Positions 13,467 through 57,716 of a DNA stretch of 64,000 nucleotides are shown in pieces. The translations under genes and the position numbers were made by a program. The stretch is from Candidatus Pacearchaeota archaeon (GTDB lineage Archaea; Nanobdellota; Nanobdellia; Pacearchaeales; GW2011-AR1): assembly GCA_041659265.1 (NCBI GenBank), contig JBAZYP010000009.1:12201-76200 (forward strand), given 5' to 3'. The notes beneath the pieces were generated by a model. The model saw only the letters and a list, made by a program, of their open reading frames with translations. It was not told the DNA's origin and did no database searches. Each line of letters begins with the position of its first letter. Within the stretch, counting starts at the first letter, position 1.

Positions 13467-13506
13467 AAAGAGAATAGAGAATATAAGCGGTTATAAAGTT
13501 TTTGTA

Positions 13507-16409: not shown

Positions 16410-16423
16410 AAAGAATAAAAAAA

Positions 16424-17752: not shown

Positions 17753-17781
17753 TTTACCTCTTTTTATAACTAAAAGTAACT

Positions 17782-18476: not shown

Positions 18477-18653
18477 ATTTTTAGGTCAGAGAATAGAGTT
18501 TTATATGGTTTATAAGCTTTATTTTTTACAGAGAATTAGTTAAATCCTTTGGGATTTGACTAATTAAAGTTCGTTATTAATTGATATGATCTATAGAATC
18601 AATCAAGATCTTGCAAAGGCAAAGTATAAAAATTAAAGTGATTTAAATATAAT

Positions 18654-18884: not shown

Positions 18885-18924
18885 AAGTTAGAAATATTTA
18901 AAAGTTAATAATCTTAAAAAATTT

Positions 18925-35679: not shown

Positions 35680-35680
35680 T

Positions 35681-35929: not shown

Positions 35930-36016
35930 GTCTTTATAAACCTTTTCATTAAGGTTTTTTAATAGTATATTTTTTCTTTCAAAAAGGTATATAAATTATA
36001 ATTGAGGTATTATATA

Positions 36017-37936
36017 ATGAATAGAATAAAGGGGCGGTATTATTTGGTGATAGGTTTATTTTACTTATTTTTTCTATTAAATTCAGTAATAATTGCTCAA
36101 GATGTAGAAACTGGGATGAATGTTACAGTTAGTCCTCCTATTCTTATTCAACTAATACCTAATTTTACATGGGAAACTAATCAAAATCTTACTAATGCCT
36201 TTTGTTTAGATGATTATTTTAAAGACCCTTCTGGATTTAGTTTAAATTATACATTTACCAGTGTTCCTAATATTCTTGTTGTGATTAATTCTACAACAAA
36301 TAATGTTTCTTTTTATCCTGATTTTGGATTTATGGGTATTAGGAATATAACTTTTTATGCTACCAATGATATGGGAACTACTCCAAGTAATCCTGTTACA
36401 TTATTTGTAAATTTAGATGACGAGGCACCTAAATGGAAGAATCCTGGAAAAAATAAAGTAAATGTTTATCAAAATGATTATGTAAATTTTACAACAACTT
36501 GGACTGACAATTATCAATTGCAGGGTTATACATTTTATTTAAGGCAACAAGGTGCTTGGGTTAGCACTCCTGGAAGTTTTAGTGGAATTGAAAATATTTC
36601 GAGAGCTAGTGCCCAGATAGTAAGTATTCCTGGAAATTTTATTTATTGGTATTTTTGCGCAAATGATACCTCTGCAAATTCAAATTGTACTGATTTATAT
36701 TCTTTTAATGTATCTGTGCCCCCTGTTGTTGATAATCCTCCATCTGTATCTCCCCCTTCATCAGGAGCAACTTCACCACCTCCTGCAACAACCACTCCAC
36801 CTGCAACTGGTGCTGCAGTAGTTCAATCTGAAGCAAAAAAGAAAATAAAGGATTTTTTAGTCGAACCCAGTTTTTTTAAGATTTCTATGAAACAAGCATC
36901 TGTTGATACTAGAATATTAAAAATAACTAATATAGGTAATACTGAAATTTTCATAAATTTGAGTCTTCTTGGTGTAGAAGATTTTGTCGTATTAAGTGAA
37001 AATTCATTTAATTTAACTAATGGCGAGGTTAAGAAAATTACAGTTGATTTCATAACAAAAAATAATACTGTTCCTGATCAATATTTTGGAAGAATAATAG
37101 TTTCTTCTTCTCAAATTCAAGAAGTTCCGGTTATTATTGATGTTAATCCTATTAATCAAAAATTTTCAGTTGATGTAAATATTTCTGAAAAATATAAGGT
37201 AGTTAAACCTGGTGAGATGGTACAAGCGAATATCATCATTAAGAACATAAAGGATATTACTCCTACAAATGTTAAATTACATATTGCTATAAAAGATTTT
37301 TCAGGAACAATTTATGATTCTTATGAGGAAGATATTCTTTTTGATGATACTTTAAATCTAATAAGAAATATCACTGTACCTTCAAATACAATTGTAGGGG
37401 AATATTTATTTTATGCTAGAATTTATGATGAAAATAATATTGCTATTGATTCAGATAGTTTTCAGGTTGGAACAAGATATTTATTAGCAGTTTATTTTAA
37501 AAAATATTTTTTATTTATTCTATTATTATTTTTATTTATTTTAACTATCTTTTTGATACTTAGATATAAAAAGGAAAGAGAGAAGGAACGAACTTTAACT
37601 CTTTATTTAATGCTTACAGAATTAAAGAATTTAATAAAAGATGGCAAGTTTGATAAAGCTGTACAATTATATATTAGAATAAAAACTATTTATGGCGAAC
37701 CTGTATCAAGAGCCAGTATTAAAGACAAAGAAAAATTAAAAGAAGAAATTGAAAAACTTTCTAATAAATTAAAGGGAGAATTGGAGACAGCAAAAGAAGC
37801 TAATTCAGATAAAGAAAAAAGCGATACAAAAAAATCTGAGGATATAAAAGAAGTCAATAAAGAAGAAACTATTGTAAAAAATGAAGAAAAAAAAGAAAGT
37901 GAAAATGAGGTAAAAAATGAAGAAAAAACCAAGTAA
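36017..37936 (+). CDS. surface protein: Ig-like N-domains, Pro-rich linker, two-domain juxtamembrane module, TM, helical tail
   Basis: Start set to ATG 36017 (signal ..FFLLNSVIIAQD). Has a PPSVSPPSSGATSPPPATTTPPATG linker, a module with DQYFGRIIVSS..VPVIIDV and VKPGEMV..VGEYLFY, TM FLFILLLFLFILTIFLIL, and a tail ..FDKAVQLYIRIKTIYGEP... Confidence 0.65.
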   Translation: MNRIKGRYYLVIGLFYLFFLLNSVIIAQDVETGMNVTVSPPILIQLIPNFTWETNQNLTNAFCLDDYFKDPSGFSLNYTFTSVPNILVVINSTTNNVSFYPDFGFMGIRNITFYATNDMGTTPSNPVTLFVNLDDEAPKWKNPGKNKVNVYQNDYVNFTTTWTDNYQLQGYTFYLRQQGAWVSTPGSFSGIENISRASAQIVSIPGNFIYWYFCANDTSANSNCTDLYSFNVSVPPVVDNPPSVSPPSSGATSPPPATTTPPATGAAVVQSEAKKKIKDFLVEPSFFKISMKQASVDTRILKITNIGNTEIFINLSLLGVEDFVVLSENSFNLTNGEVKKITVDFITKNNTVPDQYFGRIIVSSSQIQEVPVIIDVNPINQKFSVDVNISEKYKVVKPGEMVQANIIIKNIKDITPTNVKLHIAIKDFSGTIYDSYEEDILFDDTLNLIRNITVPSNTIVGEYLFYARIYDENNIAIDSDSFQVGTRYLLAVYFKKYFLFILLLFLFILTIFLILRYKKEREKERTLTLYLMLTELKNLIKDGKFDKAVQLYIRIKTIYGEPVSRASIKDKEKLKEEIEKLSNKLKGELETAKEANSDKEKSDTKKSEDIKEVNKEETIVKNEEKKESENEVKNEEKTK

Positions 37937-40409
37937 AACTTTAAAGAATTCTTTTTATCTGTTTTTTATTTTTTTATTAATATTTGGAATAATTTCTAAT
38001 GCAAATGTAAATGTACATGCAATTGATTCAGCATATGGGCCTAAAATTGAAAAAGAACTTTATACTATTTCAAGAAATAAAGTAGATAGGCTTGTTTATA
38101 AGGGAGATATATTTAGAGATTTTATTGATATTACTTATTCTGGAAGTTCTGGCTCTGAAGTTACTTTTGCGGTTAGCGATGAATTAACAGAAATTATTGA
38201 ATTTGAAACAGCAGGAGTTATTCTAAATTCCAATAATTATTCTAGAGCAAATTTTTTATTAAAGGGAAAGGAAATTGGTAATTATTCTGGATTTATTAAA
38301 TTAAAGGGAGGTATTATTGAAGATATTCCTGTAAATGTAACTGTAATTGAACCTAAAATAGATCCCCCATTAATAATAAGTCTTGAATTATCCGAGTCTA
38401 AGTTTGTTCTTAATAGGCCTTTTGAATTTAAGTTAAATATAAATAAATTAAAACCGGATTTTATAAACAACGTTTCAATTGCATATAGAATTAGGGACAG
38501 TAATAATAAAACTTTTTTTTTGGGTTCTGAACAATTAGATATTCAAACTTCTTTTCAAATTGTCAAGAAATTTAAAATACCTGATGAAATTGATGAAGGG
38601 CAATTTATTTTAGAATGTGAAACTCAATATGAGGATAAAAGGATAATTACTTCTTCAATATTCCTATTAAGAAGACCTTTTATGAAGATACTTATTTTTG
38701 GTTTTTTCCCAATGTGGTTGCTTATAACTATTTTAGGTTTGTTATTTTTTAGTGCTCTTGTTTTTTATCTTATAAGAATGAATTTAGCTAAAAGAAGAAA
38801 ATATCAGATGAAACTTGATTTAAAAACTATTCCTATAAAAGAACCTGGTTTTTTATTTTTAGGTAAAATTGCAGAGAAGAGCAATAAGGCTTATCTTGAT
38901 CCTTATAGGTTAACTACTCATAGTATTGTAGCAGGTGCTACTGGTGGAGGAAAATCAATTGCAGCTCAAGTAATTGTTGAAGAGGCCTTAATAAATAATA
39001 TTGCGGTTATTGTTATGGATCCAACTGCACAATGGTCCGGAATGCTAAGAAAATGTACTGATAAAAAGATGATGTCTTATTATCCTAATTTTGGTTTAAA
39101 AGAAACAGACTCAAGAGCATTCAAGGGTAATGTAAGACAAATAAAGAATGCTCGAGAAATAGTTCATGTTGAAAAATATATGAATCCGGGTCAAATACAG
39201 ATATTATCTCTTAATAAATTGGATCCAAAGGATATGGATTTTTTTATTGCTAATTTTATTAGGCAGATATTTAAGTCAGATCCTAAAGAATCTCCAAATC
39301 TTAAATTATTACTAGTTTTTGATGAGGTTCATAGACTTTTATCAAAATTCGGAGGTACTGGGGAAGGGTTTTTGCAAGTTGAAAGGGCATGCAGAGAGTT
39401 TAGAAAATGGGGTTTAGGAGTAATGTTAATCTCTCAGGTCTTAAATGATTTTGTTGGAGAAATTAAAGCAAATATTTCTACAGAAATTCAGATGAGAACT
39501 AGAGATGAAGGAGATTTAAAAAGAATTCAGACTAAATATGGTGATGAATTCTTACGTTCTTTAGTGAAAGCTTCTGTAGGGGTTGGTATGTTTGTAAATC
39601 CTGCTTATAATCATGCTAGACCTTATTTTGTAAACTTTAGGCCTATATTACATAATACTAGAAGATTGCCTGATGAAGAATTGGAACGTTATAATAAATA
39701 TAATGATATTTTGGAAGATTTAGAATTTCAGACAGATCAACTAGAGAAAGAAAAATTAGATGTTTTTGATCTTAAAATGGAATTAAAACTTGTTAAAGAT
39801 AAAATTATGACAGGAAATTTTTCGGTTGTAGAAATTTATTTAGAGGGATTAACTCCAAGAATTGCAAAAGAATGGGAAAAACTCGGGAAACAACCAAAGA
39901 AACTTGAAGTAGAACTTATTTCTGAAGATGAAATAAAAAAATCAATCGAAGAAGCAAAAAACGCAAGAAAAAAATATGAGCTTGAAGAAGCTAAGAAAAA
40001 AGCTAAAGATGAAAAAGAAGTAGTTAAAGCCCCGGAAAAAGAAAATCTTGATTTGAAAGAAGTTAATCCAATAACTTTTGATAATGGAATTATGGTTTCA
40101 AGTTTAAAAGAACTTAAAAGTGTTTTACCTACTATGGATATAAGTATTTTTAAAATTCATGTAAATGATCAAAAAAATGAGATTGCTGATTGGATAGAGA
40201 AAAATATATCTCCGGAGTTAGGGGTTAGATTAAAAGATGCTAAATTAAAATCACAAATGATTAAAGTTATGGATGATTTTGCTAAAGGAATTGTAGAAGA
40301 GAAGAAAGAAGAGAAGAAAGAAGAGAAGAAAGAAGAGAAGAAAGAAGAGAAAATAGTAGATAATAAATCTCCAGTAAATACAACCCCTGTAAATACGCCT
40401 CCAAAATAA
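37917..40409 (+). CDS. membrane-anchored FtsK/HerA-superfamily P-loop ATPase with extracellular N-terminal module (copy 1)
   Basis: Signal ..LIFGIISNANVNVHA, a ~230-aa ectodomain, TM ILIFGFFPMWLLITILGLLFFSALVFYLI and RRKY. Cytoplasmic part: IVAGATGGGKS (Walker A, 38941-38967), VIVMDPTAQW, LLLVFDEVHRL (Walker B, ~39306-39338) and GLGVMLISQ. 20-nt overlap with the upstream gene. Confidence 0.8.
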   Translation: MKKKPSKTLKNSFYLFFIFLLIFGIISNANVNVHAIDSAYGPKIEKELYTISRNKVDRLVYKGDIFRDFIDITYSGSSGSEVTFAVSDELTEIIEFETAGVILNSNNYSRANFLLKGKEIGNYSGFIKLKGGIIEDIPVNVTVIEPKIDPPLIISLELSESKFVLNRPFEFKLNINKLKPDFINNVSIAYRIRDSNNKTFFLGSEQLDIQTSFQIVKKFKIPDEIDEGQFILECETQYEDKRIITSSIFLLRRPFMKILIFGFFPMWLLITILGLLFFSALVFYLIRMNLAKRRKYQMKLDLKTIPIKEPGFLFLGKIAEKSNKAYLDPYRLTTHSIVAGATGGGKSIAAQVIVEEALINNIAVIVMDPTAQWSGMLRKCTDKKMMSYYPNFGLKETDSRAFKGNVRQIKNAREIVHVEKYMNPGQIQILSLNKLDPKDMDFFIANFIRQIFKSDPKESPNLKLLLVFDEVHRLLSKFGGTGEGFLQVERACREFRKWGLGVMLISQVLNDFVGEIKANISTEIQMRTRDEGDLKRIQTKYGDEFLRSLVKASVGVGMFVNPAYNHARPYFVNFRPILHNTRRLPDEELERYNKYNDILEDLEFQTDQLEKEKLDVFDLKMELKLVKDKIMTGNFSVVEIYLEGLTPRIAKEWEKLGKQPKKLEVELISEDEIKKSIEEAKNARKKYELEEAKKKAKDEKEVVKAPEKENLDLKEVNPITFDNGIMVSSLKELKSVLPTMDISIFKIHVNDQKNEIADWIEKNISPELGVRLKDAKLKSQMIKVMDDFAKGIVEEKKEEKKEEKKEEKKEEKIVDNKSPVNTTPVNTPPK
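40296..40352 (+). repeat. 12-bp tandem repeat GAAGAGAAGAAA x ~4.75 encoding (EEKK)n
   Basis: Read directly from the sequence, inside the C-terminal tail of ATPase copy 1. Confidence 0.85.
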
Positions 40410-43281: not shown

Positions 43282-44091
43282 ATGTTTAATATCCTTTTTA
43301 ATCCTAAAAAAGCACAGAGACATCCAATAGAAATGATGTTTATTGGAATGTTTTATTCTTCTATTTCTATTTTATTAAGCGCATGGCTTTTTCCAGATCA
43401 TACTTCTCTAGTTATGGTATTTTTTACAGTTCTTTCTTGTTTATATGTTGTTCAGGGTGCAATAAAGCATGAAGAATCTATAGAAAGATCTTATAAAACT
43501 GAATTTTGGATATTAAAACATCATTCAAAACTTTTAGTTTTTTTATTATTTCTTTTTTTGGGATTTGTTTTTTCATTTGCTTTTTGGAGTTTCTTTTTAC
43601 CGGGTGATAATTCTAATAATGTTTTCGGGCTTCAAAAAGCGGTTGTTGAAGGTATAAAAACTAGTTCTATAAAGGGAGATTTTACAAATTCTAATCAGGT
43701 TATTTTTGCTATTTTAGCAAATAATTTGAAGGTTAGTATTCTTTCTTTAGTTTTAGCATTTTTTTATGGTGCTGGAGCAATATTTGTTTTAGTATGGAAT
43801 GCTAGTGTAATGGGTTTAGTTATTGGTAATTTAGCAAAAGTTAAATTTGGAATATTAGGGCTTCCTATAGCATTTACAAAATATTTTGTTCACGGGATTC
43901 CTGAAATGCTTGCATATTTAGTTGTTGCAATAGCTGGAGGGATAATTTATACTGCGGTTTGGAAAGGGGATTTTTTGAAATATGGCAGATCAAAAAAGAT
44001 TTTTCTTGATGTAATTGTTTTAATATTTATCTCCTTATTATTATTAGTATTTGCAGCATTAATTGAAGTATACATTTCTCCTTATATCTAA
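43282..44091 (+). CDS. SpoIIM/DUF95-family integral membrane protein
   Basis: ..ILANNLKVSILSLVLAFFYGAGAIFVLVWNASVMG.. and ..FVHGIPEMLAYLVVAIAGG.. are the hallmark segments as I recall the family. Confidence 0.65.
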   Translation: MFNILFNPKKAQRHPIEMMFIGMFYSSISILLSAWLFPDHTSLVMVFFTVLSCLYVVQGAIKHEESIERSYKTEFWILKHHSKLLVFLLFLFLGFVFSFAFWSFFLPGDNSNNVFGLQKAVVEGIKTSSIKGDFTNSNQVIFAILANNLKVSILSLVLAFFYGAGAIFVLVWNASVMGLVIGNLAKVKFGILGLPIAFTKYFVHGIPEMLAYLVVAIAGGIIYTAVWKGDFLKYGRSKKIFLDVIVLIFISLLLLVFAALIEVYISPYI

Positions 44092-44408: not shown

Positions 44409-44585
44409 ATGACGGAAATCTTATTTAAAGGATCTAAAATTCAGACTGGAGAAAGAATAAAAATTCCTAAACCTATAGTAGATACTCTAAACCTTTATTC
44501 TGGCCAAGGGATTATAATTATTTTTGATGCTGAAAAAAAAGAAATAATTATTAGAGAAGAAAAGAATAAAAAAGATAAAAAATGA
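44409..44585 (+). CDS. AbrB/SpoVT-type (swapped-hairpin) DNA-binding protein, 58 aa, absent from ORF track
   Basis: MTEILFKGSKIQTGERIKIPKPIVDTLNLYSGQGIIIIFDAEKKEIIIREEKNKKDKK*. It shows the ..RIKIPKPIVDTLNL..G..I.. pattern. Its TGA overlaps the ATG of the next gene (ATGA at 44582-44585). Confidence 0.55.
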   Translation: MTEILFKGSKIQTGERIKIPKPIVDTLNLYSGQGIIIIFDAEKKEIIIREEKNKKDKK

Positions 44586-46465
44586 ACATAATTAAACATC
44601 TAAATAAATTTAGTATTGTCCTATTAGCCTTTATTTTAGCATTGCAGCTAGTTTCAGCTTCTCATTATATAACTGGTTATGTTCATGATTCTTTAGATTC
44701 ATTAGAAAGTGCAAATGATAAACAAGTTATTTTATGGAATCCAATTATAGGTATGCAAGAGAATATTAGTGATATTATTGGAATAAATGGAAATTCTGAA
44801 TCTTCAAATACTTTTATGTTTGATTGTGAATTATTGAATAATTCTTGTAAAATTGGAGATATTTTTAAGGTTAAAACTTTAAATGATGGAGATAATTATT
44901 TTAGTGAAGAAGAATCAGTAATTATTAGTGGTGCAGGTTATGATATAACTCCGGATTTAATTTTAAATAGTCCTCCTAATATAACTTTAAATTTTCCATT
45001 AGAGCAAGGAAATGAAAGTAGAACGGTTCGTTTTAATTGTTCTATTTTTGATTTAGATTCTAACCTTCATAATGTTAGTTTGTATGGTAATTGGACCGGG
45101 ACTTGGCATTTAAATGAGACTATAGAAACTCTGGGTGGGGCGACTTCAGTTTTATTTGAAAAAAATCTAAGCGAGGGAGAATATTCTTGGAACTGTTTAA
45201 GCTATGATAATTTATCTATATCTGGATTTAATTATAAAAATAATACATTTAGAGTAGATACAACTAGCCCTGTAATATCCCAGATTTCTGTTAATTCCAC
45301 TTATGGGTGTGGAAATTCTTATATTAATGTAAATTGCTCTGCAATTGATAGTTATGTGGGCATTGATAGTGTAATAATTCAAGCATTAAAACCTAGTGGA
45401 AGTGCTTTTTATCCTGCAAATATTTTAATACCGGGAGTATATTCTACAGAGATATTATTAGATGAAGGAGGTAATTGGAGTTTTATTTGTATTGCAAATG
45501 ATAGTTCATCAAATATTGCAAATCTTTCTTCCAATATAATAAGAGTTTATTCTTTAACTGAAAATGAGATATATGTTAATTATTCTAAAATCTATTTTGG
45601 TAATGAAAAACCAATTGAAACTGAAGAAGTAATTATTAATGCAACAATTGAGAATAGGGGATGCTCTAATTTAAATAATTTTTTAGTAGGATTTTTTAAT
45701 GGTGAACCTACTTTAGGCAATCAAATAGGAAATAATTTAACTATTTCCATACCCGGTTTTTCAAGTCAGATTGTTAATATAAGCTGGAGTGCATTAATTG
45801 GATTAACAAATATATTTATTTTTGCAGATTTAAATGATTCCATAATTGAAATAAATAATAATAACAATATTGCTAATAAGACAATAATTGTTGGTTCTTG
45901 GCAGACTTTTTATGGAAATGTGACTCTTGATAAAATTCTTGCAGATAGTTTGTTCTTTAATTTTAGTTCATGGTATAATGAATCTGAACCAATGGGAAAT
46001 ATATTTGTAGCAGATAAAGAGTCTAATATTAATTGGGCGGCATTATATCCTATTGGAAGAAATATTAGTGGAGATTTAAAGAATGATGATTTTTCTAATA
46101 TAGATAATATTTTTAATACTGCTGAATTTAATGATTCAGTAGAAAAACTTTATTCTACTTTTGGAAATTCTAAATTTAGTGATAGTTTTTTTATTCATCA
46201 TCGTAATTTAACAAATGTTCCTATTTTAAATTCAACTAATTCATCTAATTTTATTACTGGAATTCTTTGGGATTCTGCTAAAGATAGTGGTAATGGGGAG
46301 TTTGATGTTATAGATAAAGAAGATATTGTATTTGTAACAAAAATAAATAAGGCTAGTCCTGGTGGTTATGGCATATATGATTATGAAATAACCATCCCAG
46401 TTAGATTAAGAGAGTTCAATAGTCTTGATAGTAGTGAAATCTATTTTTATTATGAACTTGAATAA
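44582..46465 (+). CDS. secreted protein: HYITGYV N-domain, Ig-like repeats, C-terminal WQxFYGN..YFYYELE domain
   Basis: Signal ..ILALQLVSAS. The N-domain is paralogous to 60248-61513, and the C-terminal ~190 aa are paralogous to 53939-54724 and 55609-56391. Confidence 0.65.
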   Translation: MNIIKHLNKFSIVLLAFILALQLVSASHYITGYVHDSLDSLESANDKQVILWNPIIGMQENISDIIGINGNSESSNTFMFDCELLNNSCKIGDIFKVKTLNDGDNYFSEEESVIISGAGYDITPDLILNSPPNITLNFPLEQGNESRTVRFNCSIFDLDSNLHNVSLYGNWTGTWHLNETIETLGGATSVLFEKNLSEGEYSWNCLSYDNLSISGFNYKNNTFRVDTTSPVISQISVNSTYGCGNSYINVNCSAIDSYVGIDSVIIQALKPSGSAFYPANILIPGVYSTEILLDEGGNWSFICIANDSSSNIANLSSNIIRVYSLTENEIYVNYSKIYFGNEKPIETEEVIINATIENRGCSNLNNFLVGFFNGEPTLGNQIGNNLTISIPGFSSQIVNISWSALIGLTNIFIFADLNDSIIEINNNNNIANKTIIVGSWQTFYGNVTLDKILADSLFFNFSSWYNESEPMGNIFVADKESNINWAALYPIGRNISGDLKNDDFSNIDNIFNTAEFNDSVEKLYSTFGNSKFSDSFFIHHRNLTNVPILNSTNSSNFITGILWDSAKDSGNGEFDVIDKEDIVFVTKINKASPGGYGIYDYEITIPVRLREFNSLDSSEIYFYYELE

Positions 46466-48280: not shown

Positions 48281-51200
48281 ATGCATTTTAATAAAAATTC
48301 AAAAGAGGCATTAGATATTGCTAAAAAAGAGATTAGAAAAGCAAAAATAGAAAAATTTGTTTTTTTGTTTTTTTTGTTTTTAACATTAATCTCTTGTTCT
48401 TTTTTAGTAGTTTTTTTATCATCTAAATTAATGATGACTGGATATGCATCTTATATAGAAGGAAGGGCTGGATATATCACTGAATTAAATATAACTCAAA
48501 CATTTATACCTGATTATTGGAGTGGGGTATATGGATTATCTTTAAGGGTTCCAGGTTATTTTAGTCAGATAATAAGAGAAGTTCCTAATTCTGAGATAGT
48601 TGAAGCTCCTTCTTATTTTGATTGTATACAAACAGATGCATTAGGTGGTCCTGAAATTTATGCAACTACCGCATCTTCAATAGATTTTAATTCATTAAGG
48701 CCTGCTACACTTGCAGAATTAGATTCCTATGTCGGATGCAGCGGATCTTTCCAATGTCCGAGTAATACTTTTACCAGTATTAATAGCTATGTCGTTGGAA
48801 CAAATAATATTACAGATGTTCCATCTACTTATACTTATAGATTTGATGGAAATCAAGGAACTTTTGATGTTGGAGCTTTAAATGATTCAGTTAATTTAGT
48901 ATTTGTTAGTCATTTAGCAGCAATTCAAAAGGGTTATAGTTCTACAAAGACAGTAAATTTTCAGATGCTTCTTCCAACATTACCCAACACTACTGTTGAT
49001 TATTATTTTTTTAATGATCCTAATGATGAATGTCCTGCTGGTGGAATTGGGAATAATATTAACGCTTCTGTTTATGGATATTCATTTGATATTTATAATA
49101 ATACTCTTCCTAATGTTACAGTTACTGTTGCAGGGTATAGTGCTGTAACTGACTCTAATGGATTTTATAATTTTTCATTTACAGTTAGTCCTGGAGTTTA
49201 TAATCTTATTGCCCAATTAGCTGGATATGATCCTTATTTTGACAATGTATCTGTAACTTTTTCTGAAAATGTTTTTGAAAGAAATATTACTATGGTAATC
49301 ATTACTCCTGGAATGAATGATACTATTTCCCCTATTGTTGATGGTTTTGTTTGGGATGAATCTTTAATCCCCATATCTGGTGCTAATGTATCTATGTCTG
49401 GAACTTCAAATGTTACCGACTCTAATGGATATTATTCAATATCACCTATAATTTTTCCAGGATTAAGTCCGATTATAGCTATAAATGAGGGCTATAATAA
49501 TTATTTTTATTTTTTAAGTTTTGATGATAACACTACTTATATAAATCATAATATTACCATGACTGTTGCTTCAACTAATTATCAATTTCCAACTGGCCCC
49601 TATACATCTGGCCCTTATACAACTGGCCCTTATCCTCAACAATTTCAACCTCAAATCATTCAAGCTAAGAAGAATGGAGAAGACTTTTGGATAAGCACTA
49701 AAGAAATAAGAAAGGAAGTAAGACAAAATACTTTTGTTGATGAAAAAATAGGTCTTTTTAATTTTAAAACTTCTACAATGAATATGTTATTTTCTTTATC
49801 TCCCAATCTTCAGGATTTTGTTAAAATAGATAAAACATCTGTTGTATTAAATCCTAATTCTTTTGCAGATGTAACTGTTACAATCTATGGAACGAAACCC
49901 CTTGGAGTTTATAATGGGTCTATAACTGTTTCTGGTGATGTGCAACAGACTATTCCTGTTCATATTACTGTTGTTGAAAAAAGATCTTTAGTTGAAGCTT
50001 TATTAATGCAAATAGATGTTTTTAATAAAATAGTAAGGCCTGGAGATACTGTAAAATATAAATTAAGTCTGCAAAATCTTTTAAGAGAACAAGGATATAA
50101 AGTATTTTTAAAAATTTATTTGACAGAATCTAATGGTACTACAATTTATGCTACTGATAATGATGAAGTGGAAATATTAAATTCTTTAACTTTGTTAAAA
50201 GAACTTAAATTGCCAGATAATATAACTGAAGGAGATTATTTATTAAATGTTGATGCAACGTATTTAAATCTTTTTTCAAGTGTAACTGCACCAGTAAAAA
50301 TAACTAAACCAATTTATTTATATTCCTTTTTAGGAATGCCTTTATGGTTATGGTTTTCATTGATTTCTTTCTTTAGTTTTATTTTATTAAATTTTTTAAT
50401 TTATAAATATTATAAAGAAAAGAAGAAGAGATACAAGATATTTTTAGATTACAATACTTTACCAAAACCTGGAACGGGTGTTGTAAGGCTAGGAAATATT
50501 GCTGAAACAAAAGTTCCAGCTTATTATGAACTTGAAAGATTAACAACTCACTGTATTGTTGCTGGGGCTACAGGAATGGGAAAATCAATTTCAGCTCAAG
50601 TTATAATTGAAGAAGCTTTAATGAATAATATCGCAGTAATTGTTATGGATCCAACTGCACAATGGTCTGGAATGTTAAGAAAATGTACTGATAAAAAAAT
50701 GATGTCTTTTTATCCTAAATTTGGATTAAAAGAAACTGATGCAAGAGCCTTTAAGGGAAATGTAAAACAGATAAGAGATGCTAAAGAGATAATTGATATA
50801 ACCAAATACATGACCCCTGGCCAAATACAGATTTTTTCAATGAATAAATTAGATCCAAAGGATATTGATATTTTTGTTGCTAATTTTATTAGACAGATTT
50901 TTAGATCAGATCCTAAAGAATCTCCAACTTTAAAAGTATTACTTGTTTTTGATGAGGTTCATAGACTTTTATCAAAATTCGGAGGAAGTGGAGAAGGATT
51001 CTTGCAAGTAGAAAGATCTTGTAGAGAGTTTAGAAAATGGGGATTAGGAGTAATGTTGATATCTCAAGTCTTAAATGATTTTGTTGGTGAAATTAAAGCA
51101 AATATTAATACAGAAGTTCAAGCAAGAACTCTTGAAGAGTCAGATCTTGATAGAATAAAAACTAAGTATGGGGAAGAATATCTTAAATCATTAGTAAGGG

Positions 51201-52012
51201 CTGAAGTTGGTGTTGCAATGTTTCAAAATGCTGAATATAATAGAGGTAGACCTTATTTTTTGAATTTTAGGCCTATATTACATAATACCAGAAGACTTCC
51301 TGATGAGGAACTTGAAAAGTATAATAAATATAATTTCCAGGTTGAAGATTTAGAATATCAAATCGAACAGCTTGAAAAAGAAAAATTAGATGTTTTTGAT
51401 CTAAAAATGGAATTAAAACTTGTTAAAGATAAGATTATGACTGGAAATTTTTCGGTTGTAGAAATTTATCTTGAAGGATTGGTTCCTAGAGTTGCTAAAG
51501 AATGGGAAAAACTTGGAAAACAACCAAAGAAATTGCAAACTCAATTATTATCTGAAGAAGAAATAAAAAAAGCTATGGAACAAGAGAAAAAAGAAAAAGA
51601 AGCATTAGCTGCAAAAGAAGAAAAGAAAGTTGAAGCAAAACCAATCGAGAAGCCTGTTGAAACTCAGGCAGTTAAACAAACTAATCCTGCTACAAATAAA
51701 ACTTCTGTTAATATTGTTAAACCTAATACTTCTATTCTACAACAAACTACAAAACCAGCAAGTTTAGTTAAACCAAATAATCCTTCTACTCAAAAAGTTA
51801 CAACCGTTATACCAACTAACGCTACAACTAAACCAGTAGTATTAGCTAAACCCGTTATTCCTTCTGCACCAGCAACAAAACCCGCAGTAGTAGTTAAACC
51901 AGCAACTCCTGTTGTTCAAACATCTAAACCAACGGTTATAACTAAACCTGCGGTGCAGTCTGTTCAAACCACTAAACTTGCTGAAACAAAAAAAGAAGAA
52001 GTAAAAAAATAA
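48281..52012 (+). CDS. membrane-anchored FtsK/HerA-superfamily P-loop ATPase with large extracellular N-terminal region (copy 2)
   Basis: Start set to ATG 48281. Signal anchor FVFLFFLFLTLISCSFLVVFL, two carboxypeptidase-regulatory-like units (..VTDSNGFYNFSF..), a (TGPY)x3 repeat, the juxtamembrane module and a TM. Cytoplasmic part: IVAGATGMGKS (50561-50587), VIVMDPTAQW, LLVFDEVHRL (~50941-50965) and a K/P/T/V-rich tail. Confidence 0.8.
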   Translation: MHFNKNSKEALDIAKKEIRKAKIEKFVFLFFLFLTLISCSFLVVFLSSKLMMTGYASYIEGRAGYITELNITQTFIPDYWSGVYGLSLRVPGYFSQIIREVPNSEIVEAPSYFDCIQTDALGGPEIYATTASSIDFNSLRPATLAELDSYVGCSGSFQCPSNTFTSINSYVVGTNNITDVPSTYTYRFDGNQGTFDVGALNDSVNLVFVSHLAAIQKGYSSTKTVNFQMLLPTLPNTTVDYYFFNDPNDECPAGGIGNNINASVYGYSFDIYNNTLPNVTVTVAGYSAVTDSNGFYNFSFTVSPGVYNLIAQLAGYDPYFDNVSVTFSENVFERNITMVIITPGMNDTISPIVDGFVWDESLIPISGANVSMSGTSNVTDSNGYYSISPIIFPGLSPIIAINEGYNNYFYFLSFDDNTTYINHNITMTVASTNYQFPTGPYTSGPYTTGPYPQQFQPQIIQAKKNGEDFWISTKEIRKEVRQNTFVDEKIGLFNFKTSTMNMLFSLSPNLQDFVKIDKTSVVLNPNSFADVTVTIYGTKPLGVYNGSITVSGDVQQTIPVHITVVEKRSLVEALLMQIDVFNKIVRPGDTVKYKLSLQNLLREQGYKVFLKIYLTESNGTTIYATDNDEVEILNSLTLLKELKLPDNITEGDYLLNVDATYLNLFSSVTAPVKITKPIYLYSFLGMPLWLWFSLISFFSFILLNFLIYKYYKEKKKRYKIFLDYNTLPKPGTGVVRLGNIAETKVPAYYELERLTTHCIVAGATGMGKSISAQVIIEEALMNNIAVIVMDPTAQWSGMLRKCTDKKMMSFYPKFGLKETDARAFKGNVKQIRDAKEIIDITKYMTPGQIQIFSMNKLDPKDIDIFVANFIRQIFRSDPKESPTLKVLLVFDEVHRLLSKFGGSGEGFLQVERSCREFRKWGLGVMLISQVLNDFVGEIKANINTEVQARTLEESDLDRIKTKYGEEYLKSLVRAEVGVAMFQNAEYNRGRPYFLNFRPILHNTRRLPDEELEKYNKYNFQVEDLEYQIEQLEKEKLDVFDLKMELKLVKDKIMTGNFSVVEIYLEGLVPRVAKEWEKLGKQPKKLQTQLLSEEEIKKAMEQEKKEKEALAAKEEKKVEAKPIEKPVETQAVKQTNPATNKTSVNIVKPNTSILQQTTKPASLVKPNNPSTQKVTTVIPTNATTKPVVLAKPVIPSAPATKPAVVVKPATPVVQTSKPTVITKPAVQSVQTTKLAETKKEEVKK

Positions 52013-52077
52013 TTTAACTAATTTAATAATATCTTAAAATACTAACTATTATAAATGAAAAATGCTTTTATTAATTG

Positions 52078-52419
52078 ATGATAATAAGAACTGAGTATGG
52101 TCAACTTAATAAAATAGCTAAGGAAATAGTTGAAAAAAGAATATTAAAGAAATTAGAAAAGATATGTGACAAGAAAGAAAGACTGGAAATGCTCAAGTAC
52201 ACACTAAAATCAACAATAGACTTAAAATATATAGAAATATTAAGAAAAATAAAAAAACTGGAAAAACAAAAAAAAGATATTTTTTTTATAGAGGTAAAAT
52301 CAGAGTTATTGGCTTCAAAAATAAGGATTTTTAATGCTACCTTTAATAAAAAAGATTTTTATAATGTTTTAACTATGTTTAATGATATAGAAAAAGAGAT
52401 GAACGATGTTTGGGTTTAA
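52078..52419 (+). CDS. small helical hypothetical protein
   Basis: ~113 aa, K/E/I-rich, with no TM. It overlaps the next gene by 14 nt. Confidence 0.35.
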   Translation: MIIRTEYGQLNKIAKEIVEKRILKKLEKICDKKERLEMLKYTLKSTIDLKYIEILRKIKKLEKQKKDIFFIEVKSELLASKIRIFNATFNKKDFYNVLTMFNDIEKEMNDVWV

Positions 52420-53263
52420 GAAAAAAGATAATGCAAATGCAGATACTCAGAATGCTGTAGCTGCTGCTGAAAAAGAAGAAGCAGAAGCTGCAAAACAAGA
52501 GGCTGCTGAAAAAAAAGTTACTGCTGTAAGTGAAAGTGCGTCTTCTGATGTAGTTAGACTTGCTTCTGAAATTGATAGATTAAAAGCGAGTGTTGAAAGT
52601 TTTAATGAAGTGAGAAAATCTTTTACTGAAAGATTTTCAAGAACTAGTGAACAGATTGGTGAACTAAGGGCAATGATTCTAGAAAGAGATAAATCTATCC
52701 AGGAGATAGAACTTAAATCAATAAAAGCTTATGATCTTGTTGAATCAGTTCATCCTGAAAAAATCATGACTGAAGTACAAAAACAAGATGCAAAATCTGA
52801 GGCATTAAAAGCAAATCTTGAAGGAAATGAGGCTATTATGGGTAGAATCATGGAAGAATTAAAAGAAACAAAAAGGAAAATAGAATTTTTTAGGGGAATA
52901 GAAGAAATTGTGAAATTAAGTGAAGAAATAAAGCAAGAATTAATTGAAATAAAGAAAATAGAATCAAGAATAAGCATTAATACTGATAAAGTAGATACTA
53001 TTTATTCAGAAGTTAGGAAGAAATTCCAAGATATTGATACTTTTAATTCAGAGTTACAGGAAATGAAGGTTTTGCAAGAACAGTCATCAAAGGATGTTAA
53101 TTTCCTTAAAGATAAAGTTTCTAATATGGTTGAAAAAGAAGAATTAAACAATCTTGTAAATAAGGTTCAGAGGTATATTGATACTTTAAAGGAATTAGAG
53201 AAGAATTCTTCATTAACAAAAGATATTGCTACACTAAAAACTATTCTTGATAGTCTTAAATAA
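52406..53263 (+). CDS. coiled-coil protein with MFGFKKK N-terminus
   Basis: 285 aa with an Ala/Glu-rich start, then long heptad-like helical segments. No TM. Confidence 0.45.
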   Translation: MFGFKKKDNANADTQNAVAAAEKEEAEAAKQEAAEKKVTAVSESASSDVVRLASEIDRLKASVESFNEVRKSFTERFSRTSEQIGELRAMILERDKSIQEIELKSIKAYDLVESVHPEKIMTEVQKQDAKSEALKANLEGNEAIMGRIMEELKETKRKIEFFRGIEEIVKLSEEIKQELIEIKKIESRISINTDKVDTIYSEVRKKFQDIDTFNSELQEMKVLQEQSSKDVNFLKDKVSNMVEKEELNNLVNKVQRYIDTLKELEKNSSLTKDIATLKTILDSLK

Positions 53264-53456: not shown

Positions 53457-53669
53457 ATGGTTATAAGTGAAAGTGAACTAAAAAATATCCTTAAAACAAG
53501 AACGAATATAGAGAAATCTACAACTATTAGCAGTGATGGAAAAAATCTTCTTACAAGAATACCTAAGGAAATTGCAGATTTTTTAGAAATTGAAAAGGGA
53601 TATAAGATAAAATGGAATATAACCAGAAATAAAAAAATAAAAATGGAGATAGTTGCAAATGAAATCTAA
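53457..53669 (+). CDS. AbrB/SpoVT-type DNA-binding protein
   Basis: 70 aa. ..GKNLLTRIPKEIADFLEIEKGYKIKWNI.. matches the swapped-hairpin pattern. 17-nt overlap with the next gene. Confidence 0.5.
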   Translation: MVISESELKNILKTRTNIEKSTTISSDGKNLLTRIPKEIADFLEIEKGYKIKWNITRNKKIKMEIVANEI

Positions 53670-53961
53670 ATTTAATAAAATAAGATTAGATGGAATTGAT
53701 AAAGATATTTTAAGAATTCTTTATTCTAGAAGACCTTTAGTAACATTAAAAATAGCCAAATATGCAAAACTTTCTAGTCCTACTGTTTCTGCTAGATTAT
53801 CTAATCTTGAAAAATTAGGGATAGTAAAAAAAGCCAGAATAAATAAAATAAGAAAGTTTGAAAGAACTTTTGGGGATAATCTTATCAAGATAAAATCAGC
53901 AAGTAGGATTTATTGGGACCTTGATTTAGAAGATAAAAATGGGGGCAATAAAAATGAATAA
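53653..53961 (+). CDS. winged-helix regulator (Lrp/AsnC-type HTH)
   Basis: ..DGIDKDILRILYSRRPLVTLKIAKYAKLSSPTVSARLSNLEKLGIVKK... It overlaps the start of the next gene. Confidence 0.6.
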   Translation: MQMKSKFNKIRLDGIDKDILRILYSRRPLVTLKIAKYAKLSSPTVSARLSNLEKLGIVKKARINKIRKFERTFGDNLIKIKSASRIYWDLDLEDKNGGNKNE

Positions 53962-54724
53962 TAAATTTATTATTATCATAATATTTTCTTTAATATCTCT
54001 ATTCTTTTTGGAAAGTATAATTGCAATATCTCCAAGTGGTGGAGAGATAATTGGAATAAAAAATGAAACTGCTCCTTCTGGATCTCCAACTTCTGCGCAA
54101 GCTGTTGCTGGAAATGTAACCGAACTTAATATATTCGGATTTTCAACCACTCAAACTTGGCAAGGCTATTTTGGAAATATTAGTGGAACAATCCAACTCG
54201 CAGATGGATCAGGTAGAGCTATGTATAATTGGAGCGCAACTAACCCTGAAGGGGAGGTATTTGCATCATTAAATGATAGTCTTATTTGGACAAATTTAGC
54301 ATGCTTTAATTTTTCTTCAGATGGAAGTTTTACTGATGATAGTCTTCAATCTGGAAATACTAGTTTATATGGGATGAATCTTACCCAATTAGAATCTGAT
54401 TTTGGAATAGAACCGAATGATGTTGATGGGGTTAATGAAACATTTATTTTTCAAGATCATCCTTTATTTTATGTGAATAATTTAATGTTTAGCCAGGGAG
54501 AATGCAGAAATACTAGAATTTATAATAGTACTGGACAAGGGGCTTTTGATGAGGTATTATTGTATTCTCCAGATAATCGTGCAGTAGTATTTGCTTCAAT
54601 ATTAAGAGATAATGCAATAGGTTTTGATGGAAGAGAATATGATTTTGAGATGCTTGTTTTAGAAGATGGTCATGGGGAAGATGTATCCACTTCAACTTAT
54701 TATTTTTACTTAGAGCTTGAGTAA
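53939..54724 (+). CDS. secreted WQGYFGN...YYFYLELE family protein (copy a)
   Basis: Signal ..FSLISLFFLESIIAIS (ATG 53954 is an alternative start), ~10 N-x-S/T sequons, and a C-terminus ..STYYFYLELE*. Confidence 0.65.
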   Translation: MGAIKMNNKFIIIIIFSLISLFFLESIIAISPSGGEIIGIKNETAPSGSPTSAQAVAGNVTELNIFGFSTTQTWQGYFGNISGTIQLADGSGRAMYNWSATNPEGEVFASLNDSLIWTNLACFNFSSDGSFTDDSLQSGNTSLYGMNLTQLESDFGIEPNDVDGVNETFIFQDHPLFYVNNLMFSQGECRNTRIYNSTGQGAFDEVLLYSPDNRAVVFASILRDNAIGFDGREYDFEMLVLEDGHGEDVSTSTYYFYLELE

Positions 54725-54992: not shown

Positions 54993-55604
54993 ATGGATTT
55001 TGACCTGTTCTTGACTTCCCCTAGGTGGGAAATCTTGCAAATAATAGCCGAAAGGCCTTCGTCTCCTGTAGAGATTGCTGAAAAACTTAAGACAACGGTA
55101 TCTTATGTCAGTCAGCAACTTAAATTGCTTGATGCTGCTAATCTGCTTTCCAAAGAGAAGACTGGTGCTGCTGAAAAAGGCAAACCAAGAACACTTTTTA
55201 GCCTTTCTAATGAATTATTTTATTTAACTGTTTTAACAAAGCAATTTTCTAAAAAGAAACTTTTTAAATTAGATGAACACCATAAAAATATTTTAAAAAT
55301 TTGGTTAATTGAAGATAATACTATTCATCATTTAATAGAAAAGTTATATTGGAAACTTCAAGAGGAAATTTCCGATATAGAAGGAATTTTCATTGATAAT
55401 ATCAATTTTAAGCCAAAAATTATTATTCTCTCTGAATCAAAAAAAGTAAAATTAAAGATAGATTCTTATATTGAAGATGAAGGAAAAAGGCTAGATCTTA
55501 ATATTATTTCTTCAAATACCTTTAAAAAATATTTTTCTGAAAAACTAATTTCATTACATGATCCAACTAAATTATTGGAAAAGTTGAAAGGAGGTTTGAT
55601 TTGA
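54993..55604 (+). CDS. ArsR-like winged-helix regulator with C-terminal extension
   Basis: ..SPRWEILQIIAERPSSPVEIAEKLKTTVSYVSQQLKLLDAANLLSKEK... It ends 4 nt before the next start. Confidence 0.6.
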   Translation: MDFDLFLTSPRWEILQIIAERPSSPVEIAEKLKTTVSYVSQQLKLLDAANLLSKEKTGAAEKGKPRTLFSLSNELFYLTVLTKQFSKKKLFKLDEHHKNILKIWLIEDNTIHHLIEKLYWKLQEEISDIEGIFIDNINFKPKIIILSESKKVKLKIDSYIEDEGKRLDLNIISSNTFKKYFSEKLISLHDPTKLLEKLKGGLI

Positions 55605-55608: not shown

Positions 55609-56391
55609 ATGGTTAACAAATTTTTAGTGAGTTCTAGACTAAGATTATTTTTGGTCTTAATTTCATGTGTTTTGTCTGTAAATATGATTTTGGCAGTTCC
55701 TTCAGGAAGTCAGATTACTGGTTTAACCAATTCATCTGCTGCTACTATTGCACCTGATTGGGATAATGCAATTGCAGGAAATGTTAGTGAATTAACTTTA
55801 TATGGTGATTCTGTAACTCAATCTTGGCAAGGTTATTTTGGAAATGTAACAGGAGCAATAAGACTAGCTGATGGATCTGGAAATGTAATGTATAATTGGA
55901 GTTTAACTAATCCTAGTGGAGAAATATATTCTTCATTTAATGATTCCATAATCTGGACAAATATACAATGTTTTAATTATACTGCTGCAGGAACTTTTGC
56001 AGATGATTCAGGACAAGCTGGTGCTACAAGCAGATTTGGTATGAATTTAACACAATTAGAAGGTTTATTTAATATAACTTCAACAGATGTTGACGGAGTA
56101 GATGAAACTTTTAGTTTAAACAGTCATGTTGCATTCTATACTAATAGCAAGCAATTTTCAGCAGGAGAATGTAACAATTCCAAAATATTCACTCAAAATG
56201 GAACTGGATATTTTGATGAAGTATTGTTGTATTCACCAGATACACAAGTAGTTGTATTTACATCAATATTAAAGAGCGATGCTTTAGGTTTTGATGGGGC
56301 TAAACATGATTTTGAGATGTTAGTCTTAGAGGATGGAAGAGATGGTAATAGTGCATTAACGCCATATTACTTTTATTTAGAACTTCAATAA
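55609..56391 (+). CDS. secreted WQGYFGN...YYFYLELQ family protein (copy b)
   Basis: Colinear with 53939-54724 over its full length (more than half the residues identical by eye). C-terminus ..TPYYFYLELQ*. Confidence 0.65.
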   Translation: MVNKFLVSSRLRLFLVLISCVLSVNMILAVPSGSQITGLTNSSAATIAPDWDNAIAGNVSELTLYGDSVTQSWQGYFGNVTGAIRLADGSGNVMYNWSLTNPSGEIYSSFNDSIIWTNIQCFNYTAAGTFADDSGQAGATSRFGMNLTQLEGLFNITSTDVDGVDETFSLNSHVAFYTNSKQFSAGECNNSKIFTQNGTGYFDEVLLYSPDTQVVVFTSILKSDALGFDGAKHDFEMLVLEDGRDGNSALTPYYFYLELQ

Positions 56392-56462: not shown

Positions 56463-57716
56463 ATGATAATTGAAAATAGAATTAGAAAAGATAAAAAGAA
56501 ATGTAAATTTTTTTTTAAATCTAAATATATAAATATTATATTTATAATATTAGTCATACTTACAAATAATATTTTAATTACAGCAACTATAATCGGAATA
56601 AGTCCGGCTTCTGTAGGTATGACAAAAGTATTACGTGGAGGATATGCAGAAAGAAATATTGTTGTTTCTACAGATAGTGTTGAACCAATTTTAATCAAAT
56701 TAACTCAAAGAGGAGATACTAATGGTTGGATAAATTATTCAGATGATAATTTTAGCATATCTAAAGATTCTCCTTATGTACTTAAGATGATTATTCTTCC
56801 TCCCCTGGATCAGAGTAATGGAAATTATTCTGGTTTTTTGACTTTTTCTTCAAGCCCATTTGGAAAGGGAAGAGAAGGCCAGGCAGTAGGAGTAATACGA
56901 TCTACATTAGATTTGGCTCTTGATTTTGAAATAATTGATACAGAAATTATGGATTGCTCTGCTAAAAATTTTATAGTCGAATCTGCAGAAAAAGGAGATG
57001 ATATTATCTTTAATCTTGTAGTAATAAATAATGGAAATATTCGATTTAAACCTAATTTGAATATAAAAATATGGGATATAGATCAGATTGAAATAAAAAA
57101 AGAAGAAAATATTTTAGGTCAAGAAATATTACCTACGACTGCTGATAATTATAGCGCAAGGGTTAAATCTGATGAGCTTGAAGTTGGTCAATATTTTGCT
57201 GAAATATCTATAGATGAGTGTTACTCTTCACAGCTTTTAACATTTGATATATTAACTCCTGGTGCATTAAAGGCTGATGGGTCTTTACTTGGAATAATAC
57301 TTTCAAGACAAGGTTATGTTGGAGAGAGGGTTCCTATACGAGTTAGTTTTAAAAATACTGGACAAAAAGATGTTTCAGCACAATTTGATGGAAAAATCGT
57401 TCTTGATGGCAAGACTATCCAAAAATTAGATAGTCAAAAAATAGGAGTATCAATTTCACAGACAAAAGATTTTAATTTTGAATTTCAACCTGAAAAACCT
57501 GGAAAATATATAATTAGCGGAAAAGTTTATTATAGTGGTAAGAAGACTTTTGAATCTAGTGCTAGTATAGATATAATTGATAAAACTTCCAAGAAATCTA
57601 ATTTATTCATTTATCTAATTTATTTAGCATTAATATTTTTTATTGTAGTTTTATTTTATAAGATAAATAAAGAAAGAAGAATCTATAATCATAATTTAAA
57701 GAGGTTAAGAAGATGA
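56463..57716 (+). CDS. membrane protein made of the two-domain juxtamembrane module plus C-terminal TM
   Basis: GNYSGFLTFSS, a CARDB-like second domain (..AEKGDDIIFNLVVINNGN.., ..LEVGQYFAEISI..), a third Ig-like unit, TM LFIYLIYLALIFFIVVLFY and a short basic tail. ATGA overlap with the next gene. Confidence 0.6.
   Translation: MIIENRIRKDKKKCKFFFKSKYINIIFIILVILTNNILITATIIGISPASVGMTKVLRGGYAERNIVVSTDSVEPILIKLTQRGDTNGWINYSDDNFSISKDSPYVLKMIILPPLDQSNGNYSGFLTFSSSPFGKGREGQAVGVIRSTLDLALDFEIIDTEIMDCSAKNFIVESAEKGDDIIFNLVVINNGNIRFKPNLNIKIWDIDQIEIKKEENILGQEILPTTADNYSARVKSDELEVGQYFAEISIDECYSSQLLTFDILTPGALKADGSLLGIILSRQGYVGERVPIRVSFKNTGQKDVSAQFDGKIVLDGKTIQKLDSQKIGVSISQTKDFNFEFQPEKPGKYIISGKVYYSGKKTFESSASIDIIDKTSKKSNLFIYLIYLALIFFIVVLFYKINKERRIYNHNLKRLRR

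Follow-up and report, generated by a model that had tools for sequence, protein, structure and literature searches.

Two membrane-anchored HerA-like ATPases in a pacearchaeal surface gene cluster: an ancient paralog pair whose motors have probably been homogenised in part by recurrent gene conversion

The SPEARE proteins of Nanohaloarchaeota are mostly extracellular, carry one transmembrane helix and have a conserved cytoplasmic domain that was first interpreted as a type III restriction enzyme; each genome holds several paralogs of differing length, and Woesearchaeota, Micrarchaeota and Altiarchaeales have homologs as well (Hamm et al. 2019, PMC6642349). Later work took the cytoplasmic domain for a VirB4/TraG-like ATPase with a coiled coil behind it, and noted a second ATPase gene adjoining (Reva et al. 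2023, PMC10266531). Here we describe two ATPase genes of similar layout in a 64,000-nucleotide (nt) stretch of DNA from a Candidatus Pacearchaeota archaeon (assembly GCA_041659265.1, contig JBAZYP010000009.1, positions 12,201 to 76,200), which is referred to as the window and to whose numbering all positions refer unless another locus is named. Copy 1 (37917..40409; 830 amino acids, aa) is the short or S-type paralog and copy 2 (48281..52012; 1,243 aa) the long or L-type one. Both genes are on the plus strand, in direct orientation and ~11.6 kb apart, within a conserved cell-surface gene cluster. We consider it probable that they represent an ancient conserved S/L pair in which parts of the motor are homogenised by recurrent gene conversion while the ectodomains stay distinct, and that the products are SPEARE-like surface ATPases, the latter judged from likeness to described proteins.

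As in SPEARE, most of each window protein is extracytoplasmic, a single transmembrane helix lies towards the C-terminus, and the cytoplasmic P-loop ATPase domain is conserved. The likeness extends to adhesion-type extracellular domains and a coiled-coil tail, to a cytoplasmic part that is the most conserved and an outer part that is variable, to several paralogs of differing length per genome with a second ATPase gene adjoining, and to taxonomy, as the Woesearchaeota, Micrarchaeota and Altiarchaeales reported for SPEARE are also the taxa of our matches. In addition, relatives of the window motor with giant ectodomains (up to 6,253-7,818 aa) carry the motor at their C-terminus. Differences are seen in size (830 and 1,243 aa against 3,300-9,400 aa in SPEARE), in the lack of laminin-G, protease or toxin-like regions, and in the fixed S/L pairing with orthologous ectodomains; concerted evolution of the motor, moreover, has not been described for SPEARE. 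The SPEARE supplement gives DUF87 in an SG9 SPEARE and includes in its Table S3 a gene from the metagenome-assembled genome SM23-78 (PMC6642349). A locus of our own scan from the same SM23-78 (L074) has a motor that is 64% identical. Because of the common layout, the same weak ResIII/DEAD matches, the DUF87 in a SPEARE and this 64% motor identity, the window ATPases likely belong to the SPEARE family. That assignment relies on published descriptions together with the indirect links through L074 and DUF87. The original "restriction enzyme" label of SPEARE is explained by weak ResIII matches of the kind that Pfam returns, along with weak DEAD matches, for the window ATPases; in annotation, such "restriction enzyme/helicase" matches on these proteins should be read as P-loop noise. 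A search of the literature on DPANN archaea with HerA, FtsK or DUF87 gave nothing specific.

The contrast between conserved motors and dissimilar outer parts is evident from direct comparison of the two copies. BLASTP brings 666 aa into alignment at 55% identity, the matched part beginning with residue 77 in copy 1 and with residue 504 in copy 2, and leaves the first 76 and ~503 residues, respectively, without alignment; the two-domain module beside the membrane is only ~20-25% identical, and the cytoplasmic tails are unrelated. The motors (38850..39926 and 50480..51556) need no gaps to be aligned; they are offset by 11,630 nt in the DNA and agree in 78% of nucleotides and, over 356 aa, in 80.6% of amino acids. 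In all these respects the original prediction, made from the sequence alone, described the pair correctly: motors about four-fifths identical, ectodomains that cannot be aligned outside a juxtamembrane module, and tails that differ completely. For the analysis the motor was divided into segments A (to 39419 in copy 1), B (39420-39689; 51050..51319 in copy 2) and C (39690-39926; 51320..51556), the last of which comprises C-terminal helices. Segment C holds a near-identical DNA block (39749-39900 versus 51379-51530) that had been flagged as a sign of gene conversion. This block contains 14 mismatches in 152 nt (91% identity) and encodes 50 residues with, as predicted, two conservative substitutions (T/V and I/V). 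The longest exact DNA run of the pair, 41 nt, lies outside it, at 39315-39355 in the Walker B region. Since the whole family conserves the amino-acid sequence of the block, its DNA identity is due in part to constraint combined with extreme codon bias, the G+C content at third codon positions (GC3) being 0.15-0.18.

To place the pair in a wider context, species genomes in GTDB were scanned, yielding 78 loci (labelled L followed by a number); the relatives compared are metagenome-assembled genomes. The number of residues before the motor falls in sharp classes across these loci, with ~298-321 in S genes and ~727-761 in L genes, and a more distant M class has ~647-679. One S and one L gene are found together in at least 18 genomes, often on the same contig, and the distance between them in UBA9966 (11,584 nt) is close to that in the window (11,630 nt). 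Each ectodomain is conserved within its own class: the N-terminal part of the L ectodomain is 38-52% identical across all L orthologs, its module beside the membrane 43-65% identical, and homology covers >92% of its length, while S ectodomains are 28-60% identical among S orthologs. Over their full length, L orthologs are 41-58% identical to copy 2, and a full-length ortholog of copy 1 is 55% identical from end to end. In a database search the L ectodomain was seen only fused to this motor. Synteny is conserved as well, since in 27 loci a homolog of the gene at 36002-37936 lies ahead of the S gene and overlaps it. Six residues distinguish S from L motors, five of them in segment B. The Walker A position at 38946/50576, G in the S type and M in the L type, is the sole type-diagnostic residue outside the central segment, although some L orthologs (P0158) carry G there.

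The original prediction further proposed that a conserved engine with swapped outer parts serves diversifying surface recognition. The survey of copy number and ectodomains in related genomes, which had been suggested as a check, does not bear this out: S and L ectodomains are each conserved in their orthologs in at least 18 genomes, and no strain-level or between-genome swapping of ectodomains was seen within the S or L classes. Diversity of the outer part does appear on a larger scale. When 1.84 billion representative proteins were searched with a profile, 434 matched at E <1e-30, and in these the motor sits at the C-terminus of proteins of 450 to >6,250 aa (7,818 aa in one cluster member). 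Among representatives, 72 to 5,694 residues precede the P-loop and only 312 to 1,043 follow it, and in 127 of 138 representative relatives the 130 residues ahead of the P-loop include a hydrophobic helix. The outer part is therefore hypervariable at the scale of the superfamily only, not within this pair.

The clearest indications of gene conversion come from the relatives. S and L motors of the same genome share 0.76-0.85 amino-acid identity against a cross-genome mean of 0.75, and the fraction of identical codons is 0.56-0.78 within genomes against 0.51 +/- 0.07 between them; the excess of same codons over the expectation from each genome's codon usage corresponds to z = 2.8-9.8. Discrete high-identity tracts occur in segment C in six cases (231 nt at 100% in L018; 116 nt at 100% in L030/L055, on different contigs; 139 nt at 98.6% in L046/L011; 176 nt at 98.3% in L033/L043; 197 nt at 96.4% in L053/L062; 207 nt at 95.2% in L032/L012), and GENECONV-type permutation p values for the tracts of relatives are <=0.0005. 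In distance-based trees of four groups, S and L from each of two organismal lineages, segments A and C group by lineage in 500/500 bootstraps and segment B by paralog type in 497/500. Taken together, these patterns indicate at the sequence level concerted evolution of the motors through gene conversion, with the flagged block in a hot spot of the family. Concerted evolution of bacterial tuf genes and rRNA operons offers a parallel in which direct repeats on one chromosome are involved, paralogs of one genome resemble each other more closely than orthology predicts, identical tracts are discrete, and conversion stops where functional divergence is maintained. In the S/L pair, however, only parts of one domain are homogenised, ectodomains and tails differ, and conversion consistently spares a central segment of the motor from lineage to lineage.

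For the window pair itself the signal is weaker and evidently older. At 285 degenerate codons encoding identical residues, ~70% use the same codon, compared with 59-60% expected at saturation given the codon bias. The best high-identity tract, 93 nt at 39747-39839 (51377..51469 in copy 2), has 3 mismatches and is 96.8% identical, whereas the best cross-genome value is 88-89%, even with lower GC3, and among 2,554 cross-genome pairs only 0.08% attain 96.8% in the tract. Quartets formed with S and L orthologs join the window paralogs through shared derived states in 39150-39419 and 39690-39926, and join each copy with its own ortholog in 39420-39689 (Fisher p of 4e-3 to 2e-5 for nucleotides and 0.03 to 5e-5 for amino acids). 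Amino-acid quartets, which are insensitive to codon bias, pair the paralogs in segment C (5/0, 4/1 and 6/1) and the orthologs in segment B (0/12 and 0/10). Codon-usage expectations, cross-genome controls and amino-acid quartets were used because a ranking by DNA identity alone, which had hinted at a mosaic, is confounded by shared codon bias and was dropped.

Several observations weigh against conversion in the window pair. Scans of synonymous differences between the two window sequences (longest run, minimum and maximum windows) gave p values of 0.14-0.85 and could not tell conversion from constraint. The GENECONV-type test proposed with the original prediction was significant for 39747-39839 in one variant (p=0.0085, permutation on polymorphic sites) and not in the other three of four (0.11-0.34). 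The excess of same codons is modest (0.69 against 0.59, z 3.8) and near that of copy 2 compared with low-GC3 S orthologs (0.63-0.68), an extreme AT bias common to the genes could make paralogs pair too readily at third positions, and the 100% tracts of metagenome-assembled genomes could in principle be assembly artefacts. On balance the proposal of gene conversion is upheld by the comparative tests, but its form is not: judging from the alignments, exchanges in the window genome were older and region-wide rather than one fresh event of 152 nt.

These points can be used to weigh three other explanations. Perhaps the block merely reflects purifying selection on a helical segment common to the family plus shared, extremely AT-biased codon usage, with no conversion at all. 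This would agree with the family-wide conservation of its amino-acid sequence, with a same-codon expectation at saturation that already reaches 0.59-0.60 at GC3 0.15-0.18, with the non-significant synonymous-site permutations and with the location of the longest exact run in the Walker B region, outside the block. It does not explain why orthologs of equal or lower GC3 (L010, 0.13) reach only 88-89% in the tract against 96.8%, why amino-acid quartets pair the window copies in segment C and orthologs in segment B, why genomes with GC3 of 0.3-0.4 have tracts with 90-100% same codons against an expected ~0.45-0.56, or why the mosaic of lineage and type returns in 497-500 of 500 bootstraps; we consider it improbable.

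Still less probable is the model first put forward as a whole, in which one recent tract (39749-39900) was laid on a diverging pair whose ectodomains are swapped for diversifying recognition. The best-scoring fragment of the pair does fall at 39747-39839, the ectodomains do differ in length and content, and members of the superfamily have anywhere from 72 to 5,694 residues ahead of the motor. The tract is, however, short and not identical, the whole block reaches only 91%, and 39150-39419 is homogenised too; S and L ectodomains, in addition, are orthologously conserved with stable lengths in dozens of genomes, the L ectodomain being found only on this motor and neither class showing swaps. Least credible of all, in our view, are independent S/L duplications in each lineage or a chimeric assembly of one copy, even though a whole-motor neighbour-joining tree places S and L of lineage 2 as sisters and metagenome-assembled genomes can hold collapsed repeats. 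Segment B unites all S and all L motors across lineages (497/500), homology between the L ectodomains of the two lineages extends over 92-96% of their length, and several tracts are 95-98.6% identical, not 100%, or lie on different contigs. There is also no sign of an assembly chimera, as both window copies have syntenic orthologs, each with distinct conserved neighbours. An ancient pair with recurrent, regional conversion of its motors therefore remains the reading that we prefer.

Some individual loci deserve mention. L010 (Pacearchaeota, JAVYLW010000001.1), the closest relative in the scan, is colinear over 3092-19582 with window 32110-59932 on both sides, but the ~11.6 kb that separate the S tail from the L tail are missing from it. 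It has a single S-type gene of 706 aa with an S-type segment B and no S tail domain, directly followed by the genes that lie downstream of the window L gene. Going by sequence, this layout is what a deletion by recombination between the direct-repeat motors would leave. In L002 (6288-9757), an L-type gene on a low-coverage contig is split into overlapping open reading frames of 611 and 553 aa, by a frameshift or an assembly error, and its downstream synteny is that of copy 2. L018 contains runs of N at 1601-1615 and 5209-5308, inside and near the L-type tail of the locus with the 231-nt tract, which calls for caution over that tract.

Copy 2 encodes the larger of the two proteins (DUF87 in Pfam, 48.2 bits against a cutoff of 23.2). 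Translation from the ATG at 48281 gives 1243 aa and fits the N-termini of orthologs best; an alternative TTG at 48260 would give 1250 aa. According to the AlphaFold model, the ectodomain (predicted local distance difference test, pLDDT, 80.5) consists in order of an anchor helix, a cysteine-containing beta domain, two CarboxypepD_reg domains, a disordered linker and two immunoglobulin (Ig)/MG-like domains. The signal-anchor or first transmembrane helix (48356..48424; hydrophobic stretch FVFLFFLFLTLISCSFLVVFLSS; model helix at residues 14-60) is preceded by a conserved short cytoplasmic helix, and the N-terminal consensus is kept in the ortholog alignment. The beta-rich domain that follows (48518..49015; residues 87-252, pLDDT ~80-93) is specific to the L type, and in the ortholog alignment C122, C160, C166 and C258 are nearly invariant. 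As foreseen in the original prediction, copy 2 has an extra ~430 aa with two carboxypeptidase-regulatory-like units, matched twice by Pfam CarboxypepD_reg (PF13620, E 8.8e-12, two stretches) at 49058..49561 and modelled as beta-sandwiches at residues 267-345 and 359-434. The threefold TGPY repeat noted there also exists, in the form (T/S)GPY x3 (PTGPYTSGPYTTGPY, at about 49589-49633), within a linker at 49574..49645 that is disordered in the model (pLDDT <50 at residues 439-462); the G-P-Y core of the linker (G446, P447, Y448) is invariant in orthologs.

The two Ig/MG-like domains beside the membrane (49685..50302; model residues 476-681) were recognised by the model, by BLASTP and by Foldseek matches to MG/Ig arrays, and show low identity with copy 1 and with the 36002-37936 protein. 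A Foldseek search with the ectodomain of copy 2 returned generic Ig/MG beta-sandwich arrays only and no functional lead, and beyond the motor Pfam recognised in these proteins only CarboxypepD_reg and a weak MG2 match. The stop-transfer helix of copy 2 (50339..50404) has the sequence PLWLWFSLISFFSFILLNFLIY followed by KYYKEKKKRY and leads to the motor, with Walker A at 50564-50587 and Walker B at 50936-50956. Type-diagnostic residues, bootstraps and quartets mark segment B of this motor as having kept its L-type identity without being homogenised. The cytoplasmic tail (51560..52009) is K/E-rich, then low in complexity and rich in P, T, V and K, and is not conserved in orthologs. Copy 1 (DUF87, 37 bits against the same cutoff) has a corresponding stop-transfer helix at 38709..38774 (PMWLLITILGLLFFSALVFYLI followed by RMNLAKRRK). 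Its tail carries a small globular domain specific to the S type (40059..40286; NPITFDNGIMVSSLKEL...HVNDQKNEIADWIEK), which is 27-53% identical among S orthologs and absent from copy 2. This domain (...FDNGIMVSSLKEL...HVNDQKNEIADWIEK...) has no match in Pfam or NCBIfam. At least one L ortholog (P0158) has a similar motif in its tail.

With DUF87 (PF01935) above the gathering score in both copies, Walker A GATG(G/M)GKS and Walker B LLVFDEVH, the motors belong to the DUF87 clade of the HerA/FtsK superfamily. A PDB sequence search with the motor found HerA as the best match (E 1e-8 to 1e-7). The AlphaFold model of the motor (pLDDT 81.6) has a RecA-like fold and is most similar in Foldseek to Sulfolobus HerA (4d2i), HerA-NurA and Sir2-HerA (9x1l/9x1m, 8woc), with E values of 1.9e-10 to 1e-8 for 4d2i, 9x1l and 8woc; VirB4, DndH, FtsK and TcpA follow the HerA types in the list. 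The DUF87 core, the Walker motifs and the best sequence and fold matches are thus common to the window proteins and to HerA of archaeal HerA-NurA and of the bacterial anti-phage systems Sir2-HerA and DUF4297-HerA. Unlike HerA, they lack a HAS-barrel: Pfam finds none, and the region before the P-loop is instead occupied by the membrane anchor, ectodomain and transmembrane helix. NCBIfam HerA models score only 15-41 bits against cutoffs of 800-970. No NurA, Mre11 or Rad50 was detected among the neighbours scanned, and no Sir2 or DUF4297 partner was found in the neighbourhood.

The tethering of a same-superfamily ATPase by one or more N-terminal transmembrane segments recalls FtsK/SpoIIIE, the type IV coupling proteins (T4CP) TrwB/TraD and TcpA, VirB4 and the archaeal Ced ATPases of DNA import, and by analogy with FtsK and T4CP types suggests a ring whose pore faces the membrane. 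Weak matches to FtsK, TraD, TraC, VirB4 and CedD, with Foldseek ranks of 9 to 30, are in keeping with this likeness. Scores nevertheless lie far under the cutoffs for TraC (19-23 against 567), TraD (17-22 against 366-648), CedD (24-32 against 600) and the VirB4 model of NCBIfam, and VirB4 4ag5 is matched in sequence at E 0.69 only. FtsK_SpoIIIE (PF01580) reaches 19.3 bits, under its cutoff of 24, in copy 2 only, with no match to the gamma domain. The window proteins differ further in the large ectodomain between anchor and transmembrane helix, and no VirB6-, VirB2- or CedA-like neighbours were recognised at the window locus.

The window (G+C ~26%) is assigned to a cellular chromosome because it encodes SRP54, FtsY and two tRNAs, and to a DPANN archaeon because homologs of the studied genes carry the names Pacearchaeota, Woesearchaeota, Nanoarchaeota, Micrarchaeota and Altiarchaeota. 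Nothing points to a mobile element, as a plasmid collection returned only distant DUF87 proteins (23-30% identity) on haloarchaeal plasmids. The whole ~30-kb region 32110-62598 is a cluster kept in >25 related genomes. Beside the two ATPases it contains secreted proteins with C-terminal membrane anchors (32110-35691, 36002-37936, 41440-43134, 44582-46465, 56463-57716 and 57713-59932), a SpoIIM-like membrane protein (43282-44091) and helix-turn-helix (HTH) regulators. Three secreted proteins (44582-46465, 53939-54724 and 55609-56391) end in the motif Y-F-Y-x-E-L-(E/Q), which may be a sorting or subunit-assembly signal. The latter two are paralogs (54% identical), and small HTH regulator genes (53653-53961 and 54993-55604, respectively) sit ahead of them.

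The secreted 644-aa protein at 36002..37936 (plus strand), directly upstream of the S-type gene in the 27 loci mentioned above, overlaps the start of copy 1 by 20 nt and is probably co-translated with it. It has in common with copy 2 a module of two Ig-like domains and a transmembrane helix (26% over 266 aa, E 1e-9 in BLASTP), so that one membrane-proximal stalk is reused by ATPase and non-ATPase surface proteins. An origin of the long form by fusion of this partner with a short-type ATPase was rejected, as the membrane-adjacent module alone is common to both and the N-terminal ~430 residues are not. Downstream of copy 2 lie two genes conserved in synteny (52075..53263, plus strand), encoding a 114-aa protein and a 285-aa coiled-coil protein. 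No neighbour is better conserved than the latter (52406-53263), whose identity reaches 80%. In 37 loci its homolog comes after an ATPase gene of the L, M or S type, the distant M class included, and in L010, L018 and L045 the preceding gene is of the S and not the L or M type. The 285-aa protein is likely a functional partner of the ATPases. Searches of NCBIfam, Pfam and PDB with the conserved neighbours gave matches of coiled-coil-type noise only, and the 285-aa protein has no recognisable family. The idea that the helical module of segment C recurs elsewhere in the window was also dropped, as a hidden Markov model run against all window open reading frames gave a marginal match in the 114-aa protein (E 0.024).

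The preferred account can be put as follows. S and L, which have a common layout of N-terminal signal or anchor, beta-sandwich ectodomain stalk, one transmembrane helix, cytoplasmic HerA-like ATPase, helical C-terminal segment and tail, are probably ancient paralogs in Pacearchaeota/Woesearchaeota-type DPANN archaea, and the duplication and both ectodomain types are probably older than the divergence of the sampled lineages. Recurrent intrachromosomal conversion probably homogenises the motor flanks (~39150-39419 and 39690-39926 in copy 1 coordinates), while a central segment of ~90 residues (39420-39689) and the G/M position of the P-loop keep their paralog-specific identity; in the window genome the exchange is old or short (93 nt at 96.8%). 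By analogy with HerA, FtsK and T4CP, each protein may form a membrane-anchored hexameric ring with its pore toward the membrane and its ectodomains projecting outward, and at the cell surface this ring may supply the power to translocate a polymer, DNA or protein, an activity that has been proposed for SPEARE of Nanohaloarchaeota. S and L might share partners or co-assemble, which would explain why homogenisation of the motor is tolerated or favoured, and segment B could have a role in specificity. The domain layout, the HerA-type fold, the conserved pairing and neighbourhood and the mosaic of concerted evolution are results of the comparison, whereas ring formation, substrate, S-L co-assembly and the role of segment B are predictions.

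A more far-reaching possibility, which we regard as unlikely at present, is that S and L co-assemble or share partners as the compact core of a SPEARE-type translocase encoded by the ~30-kb envelope cluster, with conversion selected for compatibility of the ring and ATP sites and segment B contacting partner or substrate. If this were true, the pair would be a small, tractable minimal model of how DPANN symbionts energise exchange with their hosts.

DPANN archaea need contact with host cells, and the machinery acting there is largely unknown. Only the giant SPEARE protein has so far been discussed as a candidate, and its size makes it hard to work with, whereas a compact and conserved S/L pair of the same layout in a conserved surface cluster presents a small target for structural and biochemical work. 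In addition, the mosaic maps the motor: the homogenised flanks would be interchangeable between paralogs, and the ~90-residue segment that is always paralog-specific would be functionally specialised, which amounts to a testable map of specificity.

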